This document shows, piece after piece, positions 3,689-42,105 of a DNA stretch of 64,000 bases. The stretch lies in sequence record ON528745. One strand, 5' to 3'. Origin of the DNA: Shigella phage ESH35. The notes below the pieces were generated by a model. It made no database searches, was not told where the DNA came from, and saw only the letters and a list, made by a program, of their open reading frames with translations. Each line of letters begins with the position of its first letter. The stretch's first letter is position 1. The translations under genes were made by a program, and so were the position numbers.

Positions 3689-4155
3689 ATTATGATAGAT
3701 TTTATCCTTGCGATTTTGTTAATGGTCCTGGCTGTAGGACCGTTCTTTTCGTTACAGGTTGTTTGCATAAATGTGAAGGGTGTTATAATAAATCAACATG
3801 GAATGCTAGAAATGGTGTTCCATTCACTGGTGAAACACTAGAACAATTAATTGAATGTTTGAATAATGATTATATAGAAGGATTGACTATAACCGGAGGT
3901 GACCCTCTCTATCCTGATAACCGAGATGTTGTTCATTGCATTGTTCAAACAGTAAAAAATTTTTATCCCAATAAAAGCATTTGGTTGTGGACAGGATATA
4001 AATTTGAAGATATTAAACAACTAGAAATGCTTAAATATGTTGATGTTATTATTGATGGGAAGTATGAGAAAAATCTTCCGACCAAAAAGCTGTGGCGAGG
4101 ATCAGATAATCAGCGACTTTGGTCAAATACCGATGGGGTGTGGAAACATGATTAA
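3685..4155 (+). CDS. nrdG: anaerobic RNR activating enzyme (radical SAM)
   Basis: 156 aa; CxxxCxxC motif (CLHKCEGC); ATGA overlap with nrdD stop. Confidence 0.9.
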   Translation: MNYDRFYPCDFVNGPGCRTVLFVTGCLHKCEGCYNKSTWNARNGVPFTGETLEQLIECLNNDYIEGLTITGGDPLYPDNRDVVHCIVQTVKNFYPNKSIWLWTGYKFEDIKQLEMLKYVDVIIDGKYEKNLPTKKLWRGSDNQRLWSNTDGVWKHD

Positions 4156-4269
4156 ATTGAATTATATTATGGACACTATAAATGATATGATTTTTCATTT
4201 TGGTCCAGAATTTTATTCGCAATATAGTTTAGTGCTTATCAATGCTTGGTTAATCAATTAAGGGTAAAT

Positions 4270-38448: not shown

Positions 38449-38472
38449 ACAGAAAACAACTTGGAGAATAAA

Positions 38473-38742
38473 ATGGAAAACTTAATTATCATCGAGCAAT
38501 CTTTCAACGATTATGGTATGGCTTACGGTTATCGTGCGATAATGGAAGATTCTCGTGGATGTGTTATCGATATTGCTGAATGTAAAGATTTACTGCAGCT
38601 TTTGAAGATTGTTCGCAAAAATTGGGATTGTGAAAACATTAAAGCTCGTGTTGTTACAGAAGAAGAAACTGTTTTTCATGATGTAAAATTCGCTAAAGGT
38701 GCTGCTACTCTTCTGAAACGTATCGCTCCACTGTTCAATTAA
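38473..38742 (+). CDS. hypothetical protein (89 aa)
   Basis: GGAGA SD and leader identical to that of ORF 19941. Confidence 0.45.
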   Translation: MENLIIIEQSFNDYGMAYGYRAIMEDSRGCVIDIAECKDLLQLLKIVRKNWDCENIKARVVTEEETVFHDVKFAKGAATLLKRIAPLFN

Positions 38743-38755
38743 TGAGGAAATTGTA

Positions 38756-38971
38756 ATGAAACGTAAAATTGTTCAGAATTGCACTAATGACGAATTTGAA
38801 GATGTATTATTTGATCCAGATTTGGTAGTGGTTCAAAAGGAACATACCGTTAAGTTTACTCACTTGACTTCGGTTTATGTGTATGAAAAGGTTGGTGATA
38901 AACAACCAATTTACGGTGTATTTCGTGAAATTACTGAAGATGGCACAACTTACTGGAAGGAAATTTATTAA
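38756..38971 (+). CDS. hypothetical protein (71 aa)
   Basis: ATG with GAGGA SD. Confidence 0.45.
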
Positions 38972-39396
38972 TGGCTATTAAATTTGAAGTTAATAAATGG
39001 TATCAATTTAAAAATAAACAAGCTCAAGAAGATTTTATCAAGGACCATACTGAAAACGGAATTTATGCACGACGTCTTGGTATGGAACCTTTTAGAGTTA
39101 CAGATATTGACTATCTTGGTCGTCCTACTAAAATTATGTCATTTACTGGCACAATTGGATATGCAACACATGGTGATATCCTTGACGAAAACTTTATCTG
39201 GCTCTCTACTAACGAAGCCGAGTTCTTTGATGAAGTGGAAAATCCATATCAGGCAGCTGAAGAGCAAGAGCAGGAAGAGAAAGAGCAAGAACAAATAGAA
39301 GATTTCACAGAATTTCCTGTCATGAAAGTTACTATTGAAAATAATGAACAGGCATGGTCCTTGTATCAAATGCTGAAAGCACACTTTAAGGAATAA
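38971..39396 (+). CDS. acidic protein (141 aa) at the T4 goF position
   Basis: size and synteny; [12 protein letters not shown] tract. Confidence 0.4.
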
Positions 39397-39398
39397 TT

Positions 39399-39575
39399 AT
39401 GCCAACGTATGATTATAAATGCCAATCCGAAGATTGCGGGCATGAATATGAAAAAATTAAAAAGATTTCTGAACGAGAAAATGATGTTTGCCCTAAATGT
39501 CATCGTTTGTCTACTCGTCGGCCTTCTGCTCCTAAGCATGTGAATGGCGGTTTTTACGATTTACTTAAAGGGTGA
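39399..39575 (+). CDS. zinc-ribbon protein (FmdB-like, 58 aa)
   Basis: CQSEDCGH...CPKCH double CxxC pattern. Confidence 0.5.
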   Translation: MPTYDYKCQSEDCGHEYEKIKKISERENDVCPKCHRLSTRRPSAPKHVNGGFYDLLKG

Positions 39576-39577
39576 TT

Positions 39578-39952
39578 ATGTTTAAAATCGGTAAGAAATA
39601 TCGTGTTCGCGAAGGTGAAGAAAAGAAATATCTACTTTCTGCTAGTAATAGGAATGGTTCTATTAATGCCGTAATATCTACAAGCGAATTTATCGTTGAA
39701 GATATGAAAGGTCATAATGTTACAATGATTAGTACAGCAACTAGCAGAAATGCTGGAAAAATTCTTCACAGTCTGCGGAGTGAAGTTCTAATTTATGATG
39801 AAGAATTTGACTTCTTCGAAGAAGTTCCTGAAGATTTTGATTTTGAATGCACTATCACTATGAAATCTGGTGACCCTCTTTCTTTTACAGTTAAAGATGA
39901 AAGAAGCCGTTTGAGAATTATTAGTCTCCTTCAAGCCATTAAATTTAAGTGA
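39578..39952 (+). CDS. hypothetical protein (124 aa)
   Basis: internal ATG of track ORF 39572..39952. Confidence 0.45.
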   Translation: MFKIGKKYRVREGEEKKYLLSASNRNGSINAVISTSEFIVEDMKGHNVTMISTATSRNAGKILHSLRSEVLIYDEEFDFFEEVPEDFDFECTITMKSGDPLSFTVKDERSRLRIISLLQAIKFK

Positions 39953-40218
39953 AAATTATGAAATATATTAATCGTTCTATCGCGGCATTAGTATTAGCAG
40001 TGTCTTTAGCAGGATGTACTGATGCTGATAATGCAACCAAAGTTTTATCTTCAAGTGGTTTTACTAATATTGAAATCACTGGATATAATTGGTTTGGTTG
40101 TTCTGAAAATGATTTCCAACATACTGGATTTCGTGCTATTGGACCTACTGGGCAGAAAGTAGAAGGAACAGTATGTTCTGGGCTGTTCTTTAAGGATTCA
40201 ACTATTCGTTTTAAATAA
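39949..40218 (+). CDS. putative lipoprotein (89 aa)
   Basis: signal peptide with lipobox LAGC. Confidence 0.5.
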   Translation: MKIMKYINRSIAALVLAVSLAGCTDADNATKVLSSSGFTNIEITGYNWFGCSENDFQHTGFRAIGPTGQKVEGTVCSGLFFKDSTIRFK

Positions 40219-40219
40219 A

Positions 40220-40233
40220 AGGCCTTCGGGCCT
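40220..40233 (+). terminator. UUCG-tetraloop hairpin
   Basis: AGGCC-ttcg-GGCCT then TTT. Confidence 0.5.
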
Positions 40234-40260
40234 TTAGCTTTATGATTGCCGGAGTATAAT
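40234..40260 (+). promoter_or_regulatory. middle-promoter-like element for gene 39
   Basis: TTAGCTTTA, 12 bp, TATAAT; same module as upstream of gene 47. Confidence 0.45.
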
Positions 40261-40284
40261 ATTCCCGAAACCAAACGAGGATAA

Positions 40285-42105
40285 GTGATGATTAAGAATG
40301 AAATTAAAATTCTGAGCGATATTGAACATATCAAAAAGCGTAGCGGCATGTATATTGGCTCTTCTGCTAATGAAATGCATGAGCGCTTTCTGTTTGGTAA
40401 ATGGGAAAGTGTTCAGTATGTACCTGGTCTTGTTAAGCTTATTGATGAAATTATCGATAACTCAGTAGATGAAGGTATTCGTACTAAGTTTAAATTCGCG
40501 AATAAAATTAATGTTACCATTAAAGATAATCAGGTAACAGTTGAAGATAACGGTCGCGGTATTCCACAAGCGATGGTTAAAACACCTACTGGTGAAGAAA
40601 TTCCTGGTCCTGTTGCTGCCTGGACTATTCCAAAAGCAGGTGGTAACTTCGGTGATGATAAAGAACGCGTCACCGGTGGTATGAATGGTGTTGGTTCTAG
40701 TTTGACAAACATTTTTTCTGTGATGTTTGTCGGTGAAACTGGCGATGGTCAAAATAATATTGTAGTTCGTTGTTCAAATGGTATGGAAAATAAATCCTGG
40801 GAAACTATTCCTGGAAAATGGAAAGGAACTCGTGTTACTTTCATTCCTGATTTTATGTCATTTGAAACTAATGAGCTGTCTCAGGTTTATCTTGACATTA
40901 CACTGGACCGTCTCCAGACACTTGCTGTCGTTTATCCTGATATTCAATTTACTTTTAATGGTAAAAAGGTTCAGGGCAATTTTAAGAAATATGCACGACA
41001 GTATGATGAACATGCTATTGTTCAAGAACAAGAAAATTGTTCTATTGCGGTTGGTCGTTCACCGGATGGTTTTCGTCAATTAACTTACGTGAATAACATT
41101 CATACTAAGAATGGTGGCCATCACATTGACTGTGTTATGGATGATATTTGCGAAGACCTTATTCCACAAATCAAACGTAAATTCAAAATTGATGTAACTA
41201 AAGCACGCGTTAAAGAATGTTTGACTATCGTTATGTTTGTTCGTGATATGAAAAACATGCGATTTGATTCTCAAACTAAAGAGCGTTTGACTTCTCCATT
41301 TGGCGAAATTCGTAGTCATATTCAACTTGATGCTAAAAAGATTTCACGCGCTATTCTAAATAATGAAGCAATTCTGATGCCGATTATTGAAGCTGCGTTG
41401 GCTCGTAAATTGGCGGCAGAAAAAGCAGCAGAAACTAAAGCAGCTAAAAAGGCTTCTAAAGCTAAGGTTCATAAACATATCAAAGCGAATCTTTGTGGTA
41501 AAGATGCTGACACTACTCTTTTCTTGACTGAGGGTGATTCTGCTATCGGATATCTTATTGATGTTCGTGATAAAGAACTTCATGGTGGTTATCCATTGCG
41601 TGGTAAAGTTCTTAACAGCTGGGGTATGTCATATGCTGATATGCTTAAAAACAAAGAACTATTTGATATTTGCGCAATCACTGGATTAGTTCTTGGTGAA
41701 AAAGCTGAAAACTTGAATTATCATAATATTGCTATTATGACCGATGCTGACCATGATGGTCTAGGAAGCATTTATCCTTCTCTGCTCGGGTTTTTTAGTA
41801 ATTGGCCAGAATTGTTTGAGCAAGGACGAATTCGCTTTGTCAAAACTCCTGTAATCATCGCTCAGGTCGGTAAAAAACAAGAATGGTTTTATACAATCGC
41901 TGAATATGAGAGTGCCAAAGATGCTCTACCTAAACATAGCATCCGTTATATTAAAGGACTTGGCTCTTTGGAAAAATCTGAATATCGTGAGATGATTCAA
42001 AATCCAGCATATGATGTTGTTAAACTTCCTGAGAACTGGAAAGAGCTTTTTGAAATGCTCATGGGAGATAATGCTGACCTTCGCAAAGAATGGATGAGCC
42101 AGTAG
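40285..42105 (+). CDS. 39: DNA topoisomerase II large (ATPase) subunit, unsplit
   Basis: 606 aa from GTG (605 from ATG 40288); GHKL ATPase motifs. Confidence 0.93.
   Translation: MMIKNEIKILSDIEHIKKRSGMYIGSSANEMHERFLFGKWESVQYVPGLVKLIDEIIDNSVDEGIRTKFKFANKINVTIKDNQVTVEDNGRGIPQAMVKTPTGEEIPGPVAAWTIPKAGGNFGDDKERVTGGMNGVGSSLTNIFSVMFVGETGDGQNNIVVRCSNGMENKSWETIPGKWKGTRVTFIPDFMSFETNELSQVYLDITLDRLQTLAVVYPDIQFTFNGKKVQGNFKKYARQYDEHAIVQEQENCSIAVGRSPDGFRQLTYVNNIHTKNGGHHIDCVMDDICEDLIPQIKRKFKIDVTKARVKECLTIVMFVRDMKNMRFDSQTKERLTSPFGEIRSHIQLDAKKISRAILNNEAILMPIIEAALARKLAAEKAAETKAAKKASKAKVHKHIKANLCGKDADTTLFLTEGDSAIGYLIDVRDKELHGGYPLRGKVLNSWGMSYADMLKNKELFDICAITGLVLGEKAENLNYHNIAIMTDADHDGLGSIYPSLLGFFSNWPELFEQGRIRFVKTPVIIAQVGKKQEWFYTIAEYESAKDALPKHSIRYIKGLGSLEKSEYREMIQNPAYDVVKLPENWKELFEMLMGDNADLRKEWMSQ

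Follow-up and report, generated by a model that had tools for sequence, protein, structure and literature searches.

We analysed a 64,000-nucleotide window of Shigella phage ESH35 (sequence record ON528745), which belongs to a Tequatrovirus (T4-like) genome. A 1.7-kb stretch around the locus described here is 96% identical to EO1, RB18, GiZh, wV7 and many more (533 records), and a 20-kb stretch is 95–96% identical to several Tequatrovirus genomes. Genes in this part of the window run in the order dda, dexA, motB.2, motB.1, motB, ORF93, cef, goF, 39.2, ORF124, 39.1, 39, rIIA.1 and rIIA. The matching records label the same genes cef, goF, 39.2, hypothetical protein (ORF005 in RB18), 39.1 and topoisomerase II large subunit. 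The features of the locus are the following:

38756–38971, plus strand: cef, 71 aa, a suppressor-tRNA modifier and the first gene of the tight block (Pfam T4_Cef, E = 5.5e-35; phrog_1354).
38971–39396, plus strand: goF, 141 aa, by its profile a paralogue of the 124-aa ORF (phrog_622, E = 9.9e-41).
39399–39575, plus strand: orthologue of gene 39.2 (nwgI), 58 aa from an ATG start, with a predicted FmdB-type zinc ribbon and a conserved C-terminal tail, APKHVNGGFYDLLKG (Pfam Zn_ribbon_8, TIGR02605, phrog_1076).
39578–39952, plus strand: ORF124, by its profile a GoF-family paralogue of the RB69ORF005c / RB18ORF005 type, 124 aa from ATG (phrog_622).
39958–40218, plus strand: orthologue of gene 39.1, a predicted prolipoprotein, 86 aa from ATG (phrog_902, E = 4.7e-37).
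40218–40235, plus strand: hairpin AAAGGCC-UUCG-GGCCUUU, directly 3' of the 39.1 stop codon (RNA folding).
40233–40260, plus strand: putative middle-promoter-like site for gene 39, made of the MotA-box-like TTTAGCTTTA, a 12-bp spacer and TATAAT at 40255–40260 (read from the sequence).
40288–42105, plus strand: gene 39, encoding the large subunit of DNA topoisomerase II in unsplit form (605 aa with the ATG start; alternative start at 40285).

Three small ORFs had been proposed upstream of topoisomerase gene 39 in a preliminary description of this DNA, and all three are found at the given place on the plus strand, between goF and gene 39. They are closely packed: the goF stop at 39396 is followed by the 39.2 start at 39399, the 39.2 stop at 39575 by the ORF124 start at 39578, and the ORF124 stop at 39952 by the 39.1 start at 39958, leaving intergenic gaps of 2, 2 and 5 nt, respectively. 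Upstream, the position of cef matches that in T4 and RB18, and the goF label is present in the T4, RB18 and T6 records. ORF124 would measure 126 aa if started at a GTG at 39572. Similarly, 39.1 would reach 89 aa from an upstream GTG at 39949, the length first given for it. The ATG at 39958 (86 aa) is however the most likely start, because the homologues measure 82–86 aa and because T4, which is devoid of the middle ORF, lacks the upstream in-frame GTG. The description of 39.1 as a lipoprotein with an LAGC motif stands, with its length corrected.

The block ends in the hairpin at 40218–40235, whose 7-bp stem and UUCG loop appear in both the minimum free energy (MFE) and the centroid structures. 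The 56-nt stretch folded around it shows no added stability over shuffled versions of itself (MFE -11.5 kcal/mol, z -0.60), and the terminator scan did not pick up the UUCG hairpin. A 'terminator' is annotated at the same position in G4507, fPS-2 and fPS-90, and the hairpin is identical in T4; it is probably a terminator or an RNA-stabilising stem-loop that closes the early unit. The overlapping segment at 40233–40260 may act as a middle-promoter-like site for gene 39, judged against the T4 middle-promoter consensus. Rfam yielded zero matches across the whole window, and PADLOC zero matches for any of the proteins.

Profile matches and purifying selection indicate that the three ORFs are genes rather than chance ORFs. 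In pairwise comparisons with other phages, dN/dS ranges over 0.06–0.12 for 39.2, 0.04–0.12 for 39.1 and 0.23–0.49 for ORF124; the last value is the highest of the block and signifies weaker constraint. No phage family was matched by the overlapping minus-strand ORFs (39945–40349, 39366–39539 and 39139–39384). Expression data are available for T4, where the 39.1 and 39.2 mRNAs are both early. Mass spectrometry of the T4 proteome detected the 39.1 protein, classed as accumulating late, and did not detect the 39.2 protein. A zinc-ribbon fold, predicted through the profiles given below, and expression, documented for T4, both accompany the locus. Were one or more of the ORFs a non-coding chance frame or a decaying remnant, this could account for the absence of ORF124 from T4, its truncation in T2 and its top dN/dS, and also for the lack of a fitness effect of 39.1 and 39.2 in T4. 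Yet all three are under purifying selection, occur at full length in hundreds of genomes and match profiles, and the T4 39.1 protein has been seen directly; we therefore hold such an origin to be vanishingly improbable.

Comparison with T4 is complicated by its reference record. Over a 481-bp stretch, NC_000866/AF158101 and resequenced T4 share 97.1% identity with two extra bases, and the reference differs from every resequenced T4. Built from the 1980s–90s sequences M89919 and X06220, it gives 39.2 as 45 aa and 39.1 as a 65-aa form that begins at an internal ATG and has no signal peptide. MT984581 and other resequenced T4 genomes carry a 58-aa 39.2 and an 86-aa 39.1. We considered decay of both genes in T4, through a frameshift in 39.2 and a lost lipobox in 39.1, and rejected it, as both are intact in resequenced T4. 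Among the three ORFs, only ORF124 is truly missing in T4. The error has spread to downstream resources: it explains why the genome-wide T4 knock-down (CRISPRi) library placed its 39.1 guides on a false start and listed 39.1 as a family singleton (PMC11879866). Knock-down of 39.1, 39.2 and goF under laboratory conditions had no fitness effect there, the 39.1 guides being those set on the mis-annotated start (PMC11879866).

The first of the three genes encodes a predicted zinc ribbon. Its 58-aa product scores 47.7 bits against Pfam PF09723 Zn_ribbon_8 (cut-off 34.4, E = 1.5e-12) and 45.9 against TIGR02605 (CxxC_CxxC_SSSS), the NCBIfam FmdB family zinc ribbon protein (cut-off 31.3, E = 4.5e-12), both above the curated cut-offs, in agreement with the FmdB-like ribbon originally proposed. 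Of the double CxxC pattern described at that time, the two zinc-ligand pairs are present, but only one is a CxxC: the pattern reads C8-x4-C13 (CQSEDC) plus C31-x2-C34 (CPKC). Its similarity to the FmdB family lies in the N-terminal MPxYxYxC motif and the two zinc knuckles. It departs from the family in the first knuckle, which is Cx4C and not CxxC, and in its end, where a phage-specific APKxVNGGFYD tail replaces the Ser-rich one.

From its 81% identity to the resequenced T4 gp39.2 (58 aa), its 93% identity to RB69 39.2 and its place between goF and gene 39, we conclude that the 58-aa ORF is orthologous to gene 39.2 of T4 and RB69. The ligands C8, C13, C31 and C34 are invariant in T4, RB69, RB18 and ZN18, and so are the last 16 residues (SAPKHVNGGFYDLLKG) when compared with T4 and RB69. 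ESH35 and T4/RB69 NwgI thus share a length of 58 aa, position, zinc ligands and C-terminal tail; what sets the ESH35 protein apart from that of T4 is 11 substitutions. Despite the Tequatrovirus background, the ESH35 allele is of the RB69 type, with a dS against T4 of 1.36, compared to 0.13 for the neighbouring 39.1. We found 39.2 in 877 phage records. Some distant phage homologues carry His at the second ligand (CxxH). At only 37–51% overall identity, RB49, Muldoon, POP18 and Ursula keep the tail motif AP[KR]x[VI][NH]GG[FY]YD, and this persistence in distant genera suggests that the tail is functionally important. Its two glycines followed by a hydrophobic residue recall the segment (..SAGGIVL..) with which the mobile loop of GroES binds GroEL, a resemblance that we mention as a lead only.

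According to two papers that cite the original work, gp39.2 (NwgI), a protein of 58 aa, shifts the host GroEL toward an open, GroES-accepting conformation, and T4 with a deletion of 39.2 does not grow on certain groEL mutants (PMC4396842 and PMC5153855, citing Ang & Georgopoulos 2012, Genetics 190:989). We assign this role, known from papers on T4 and RB69, to the ESH35 protein by orthology. NwgI of ESH35 would then be a 58-residue cytoplasmic zinc-ribbon protein, whose four ligands presumably hold one zinc ion and whose conserved tail (APK-x-V-N-GG-F-Y-D) is the probable working surface. It would push host GroEL to an open, co-chaperonin-accepting state; together with the phage co-chaperonin gp31, open GroEL would then continue to fold the major capsid protein even where the host's version of it is poorly compatible with the phage.

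The preliminary description had offered a different function, that of a regulator or anti-sigma-like factor, for which we see no support given what the citing papers report of the orthologue. A role in transcription might be read from the membership in the FmdB family, from the label 'FmdB-like transcriptional regulator' used in phrog_1076 and RefSeq, and from the place of this early gene amid the transcription and RNA modifiers motB, goF and cef. The label, however, was inherited from a family for which regulation is itself a putative role; the protein has 58 residues and no DNA-binding domain, and its tail motif is specific to a phage subgroup. As summarised in the citing papers, genetic and biochemical evidence has the orthologue acting on GroEL, a chaperonin modulation that differs from the regulation of gene expression ascribed to the FmdB family. 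We judge a regulatory or anti-sigma-like function to be quite unlikely. Since gp39.2 is reported in those papers as a GroEL modulator, neither 'regulator' nor 'FmdB-like transcriptional regulator' describes it best; the current label is misleading and 'GroEL modulator NwgI' would serve better.

The second gene, ORF124, finds nothing in Pfam and NCBIfam. Against PHROGs it matches phrog_622 (E = 1.1e-29), the family also matched by goF (E = 9.9e-41), and on the basis of this common profile we conclude that it is a GoF paralogue. The kinship had been missed in the preliminary description. Both proteins align collinearly over both halves at about 21% identity, and their direct comparison is weak (BLASTP E = 0.048; hhalign E = 0.0074, probability 5%). 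[quoted passage not shown] Unlike GoF, it is shorter and has no acidic E/Q-rich linker. That study does not cover ORF124, since T4 is without it (PMC12152347).

An AF2 model of moderate confidence (pLDDT 70.5) folds ORF124 into five strands plus a C-terminal helix, with inserted helices at residues 14–34. Its best matches in the PDB are non-significant (E at least 0.17) and include NusG/KOW, FeoA 2k5l and Lsm; KOW, FeoA and Lsm barrels are likewise the structural neighbours reported for GoF (PMC12152347). The model fits an LSm-like fold but falls short of proof. No effect on RNA stability or RNA binding was found for GoF in wild-type form. We propose that ORF124 is a shortened GoF paralogue, in which a C-terminal helix probably follows an N-terminal domain built as a small LSm/SH3-like beta-barrel. 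Most likely, it would act as a modulator at the RNA level or through protein binding, as proposed for GoF.

Homologues of ORF124 occur in 420 phage records at 80% identity or more and in 157 at less than 60%. The close ones (at least 79% identity) are confined to Tequatrovirus; in Mosigvirus, RB69ORF005c, 42–44% identical, occupies the same place. T6 and RB18 have the gene intact, T2 has a truncated copy and T4 cleanly lacks it: it is an accessory cassette that can be dispensed with. A succession of GoF-like / 39.2 / GoF-like genes is found in Tequatrovirus, Mosigvirus and Citrobacter phage Ursula, and not in RB49 or Muldoon. That three genera conserve it may point to cooperation between the GoF proteins and the GroEL modulator.

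The third gene, 39.1, is 99% identical to gp39.1 of resequenced T4 and 98–99% identical to its counterparts in T2, T6 and RB18. T4 gp39.1 (phrog_902; called 'lipoprotein' in JS98, KP185 and PG7) differs from it by one change in the lipobox, LIGC in T4 to LAGC in ESH35. The N-terminus reads MKYINR / SIAALVLAVS / LAGC, with a signal peptide at residues 1–19 and a lipobox at residues 17–20; the charged n-region, the hydrophobic h-region and the lipobox pattern [LVI][ASTVI][GAS]C are all present. This is a typical lipoprotein signal peptide, conserved across the 39.1 family, which bears out the initial assignment. The predicted lipidation site is Cys20 (codon 40015–40017), which at least 90% of the members aligned retain. 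A strict lipobox is found in 88 of 111 members, and most of the remainder carry either a less stringent lipobox or a membrane anchor. The residue at position +2 is Thr in ESH35 and in 75 of the 88, and Asp in none of them. In E. coli, a +2 residue other than Asp directs a lipoprotein to the outer membrane through Lol sorting.

The mature domain spans about 66 aa. Exactly three cysteines are present in 76 of the 88 mature domains, and Cys48 and Cys73 are nearly invariant in the family. An AF2 model (pLDDT 77.7) consists of one helix packed on four antiparallel strands. Judged from these features, 39.1 is probably a lipoprotein of the outer membrane with one disulfide. After export, the protein would receive its lipid at Cys20; given Thr at +2, its probable destination is the outer membrane, on the inner leaflet. 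From there, an alpha/beta domain of 66 residues, stabilised by the disulfide, would reach into the periplasm.

The 39.1 family extends far beyond T-even phages. It is found in 1,065 phage records, which include T4-like and jumbo phages among others. When 1.84 billion representatives were searched with a profile, 2,236 clusters came out at E ≤ 1e-3, of which 1,125 at E ≤ 1e-10 (clusters counted at 50% identity). Members about 50% identical to 39.1 occur in phages of Klebsiella, Serratia, Aeromonas, Stenotrophomonas and Pseudomonas, and Mosigviruses such as RB69 lack the gene at the corresponding position. Only three of 72,556 plasmids carry it. In bacterial genomes it is rare: a scan with a narrow alignment gave four loci, of which the Streptomyces one is probably spurious, and the clearest example belongs to a prophage-like region that also carries an S24 repressor and a diversity-generating retroelement. 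Other homologues sit in arrays of phage accessory genes, and no conserved gene neighbour emerged among the distant ones. Next to one distant homologue, a 58-aa ORF was considered as a zinc ribbon and rejected, being a membrane peptide.

A Pfam scan of 74 diverse members of the 39.1 family found no family, the 39.1 profile had zero matches among PDB sequences, and when the model was compared with PDB folds the best E was 1.0, which is not significant. In BFVD, the model matched only uncharacterised phage lipoproteins, from PG7, Atu_ph07, pEt-SU and N1M2. A literature search for 39.1 as a lipoprotein returned no paper. The family is large, almost purely phage-borne, and without a Pfam model or structural relative.

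As a small phage lipoprotein, probably anchored in the outer membrane, gp39.1 could be an o-spanin-like lysis protein. The T4 mRNA is nevertheless early, the gene lies in an early region beside replication genes, and no i-spanin partner gene is adjacent to it. Moreover, 39.1 is predicted to fold into an alpha/beta domain, contrary to o-spanins, which are typically proline-rich and extended. The spanins of T4 are pseT.2 and pseT.3. This makes a lysis function extremely unlikely.

Parallels are also offered by the receptor-blocking superinfection-exclusion lipoproteins, such as T5 Llp and phi80/N15 Cor. A gp39.1 of this kind would act from the periplasm to inactivate the receptor that the phage itself uses in the outer membrane. 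Like them, it is a small early phage lipoprotein containing a disulfide, probably placed in the outer membrane; in temperate-type elements it also resembles a moron. Nonetheless, searches of Pfam and the PDB linked it to Llp or Cor neither by sequence nor by a significant fold (the best hit being the one at E = 1.0), and its sequence does not follow differences in receptor specificity. T2, T4 and T6 use different receptors, FadL/OmpF, OmpC/LPS and Tsx, respectively. That 39.1 is 98–99% identical in these three phages, and still about 50% identical across phages of hosts as different as Klebsiella, Serratia, Aeromonas, Stenotrophomonas and Pseudomonas, argues against a receptor-specific blocker, and we find this function unlikely.

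Our best guess is instead that 39.1 binds a conserved envelope component and not a particular phage receptor, and that it thereby protects or conditions the cell envelope during infection. The data hint that this partner could be a conserved periplasmic or outer-membrane component; exclusion of superinfecting phage and resistance to outside damage are two possible roles. For the family as a whole, we tentatively suggest, as a possibility rather than a probability, that it comprises small disulfide-bonded envelope lipoproteins (at least 1,100 and up to about 2,200 clusters) acting on an envelope component conserved in Gram-negative bacteria, and not on a receptor.

Altogether, it is very probable that the locus holds three consecutive accessory genes of the standard T-even early unit cef-goF-39.2-ORF124-39.1, ended by a UUCG hairpin, with the respective roles of NwgI, GoF-like protein and envelope lipoprotein proposed above. 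This analysis itself established which genes are present, their domain family, the features of a lipoprotein, the conservation and the synteny; the GroEL role and T4 expression come from published papers, and the roles of ORF124 and 39.1 are those that we infer. The locus as such was already known, because its genes are 96–99% identical to annotated genes in hundreds of T-even genomes and the function of 39.2/nwgI has been published. For experiments, gp39.1 makes a good target: it is very widespread, strongly constrained, detected as a protein in T4 infection, and has no Pfam model or structural relative. If the proposal made for it is true, 39.1 would be a new envelope-directed effector of host takeover, superinfection exclusion or anti-defence, common to T4-like, jumbo and some temperate phages.

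The block is a mosaic: against T4, synonymous divergence (dS) is about 1.36 in 39.2 (39399-39575) and only 0.13 in 39.1 (39958-40218), some 380 bp away. A recombination boundary must lie between them. The 39.2 allele is of RB69 type, with 93% protein identity to its RB69 counterpart. Between 39.2 and 39.1, the ORF124 cassette has been inserted or deleted at a common junction, ..AAAGGGT(A/G)ATTATG.

For the T4 counterpart of window 39399-40218, we compared the reference record NC_000866 (5398-5839) with the T4 sequence MT984581 (622-1061). The reference record is 97.1% identical to all resequenced T4 genomes, with two extra bases and several substitutions, which are sequence errors of the record. 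Because of these errors, 39.2 is cut to 45 aa in it, and 39.1 appears as a 65-aa product without signal peptide or lipobox. In a T4 CRISPRi library, the 39.1 guides were designed on the false start of the reference record and 39.1 was given as a PHROG singleton (PMC11879866).

Variants of the 39.1 family were noted among proteins P0155, P0195, P0138 and P0041. In P0155 the domain is present in two tandem copies, and a few members carry an N-terminal membrane anchor and no lipobox cysteine; what counts in this family may thus be attachment to the membrane and not lipidation per se. Some distant members sit in temperate-phage-like surroundings (L018, an Achromobacter veterisilvae contig, 3998-4252; comparison locus L006, 4001-4303): one has an S24 repressor on one side and, on the other, a diversity-generating retroelement (bAvd and reverse transcriptase); another lies downstream of a Q-antiterminator-like gene.

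Around these genes, the window contains:
38461-38742, + strand: 93-aa ORF (RB18ORF009 / T2_9; phrog_3720, E=1e-46)
38971-39952, + strand: GoF-like gene, 39.2, GoF-like gene
40218-40260: GGCC-UUCG-GGCC tetraloop hairpin, directly 3' of the 39.1 stop codon, and MotA-box-like site
40285-42105, + strand: gene 39, one unsplit ORF of 605-606 aa

The MotA-box-like sequence TTTAGCTTTA is partly shared with the hairpin; after a spacer of 12 bp comes TATAAT, still upstream of gene 39. T4 is identical throughout 40218-40260. Gene 39 itself differs from that of T4 in lacking the mobA/60.1 insertion and a separate gene 60, the unsplit state being also that of T2, T6, RB18 and RB69. The 93-aa ORF, placed between motB and cef, is another accessory cassette, found in RB18 and T2 and missing in T4.

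In the C-terminal tail of gp39.2 (39525-39575), the motif AP[KR]x[VI][NH]GG[FY]YD is maintained down to 37% overall identity. It resembles the part of the GroES mobile loop that binds GroEL (SAGGIVL), and the tail is a possible mimic of that loop.

Finally, the order GoF-like (phrog_622) / 39.2 zinc ribbon / GoF-like (phrog_622) is kept in Tequatrovirus, Mosigvirus and Citrobacter phage Ursula (comparison loci L010, 1891-2911; L011, 3548-4565; L013, 1-777), and is not kept in RB49 or Muldoon. Its conservation hints that GoF-family proteins are functionally linked to the GroEL modulator.
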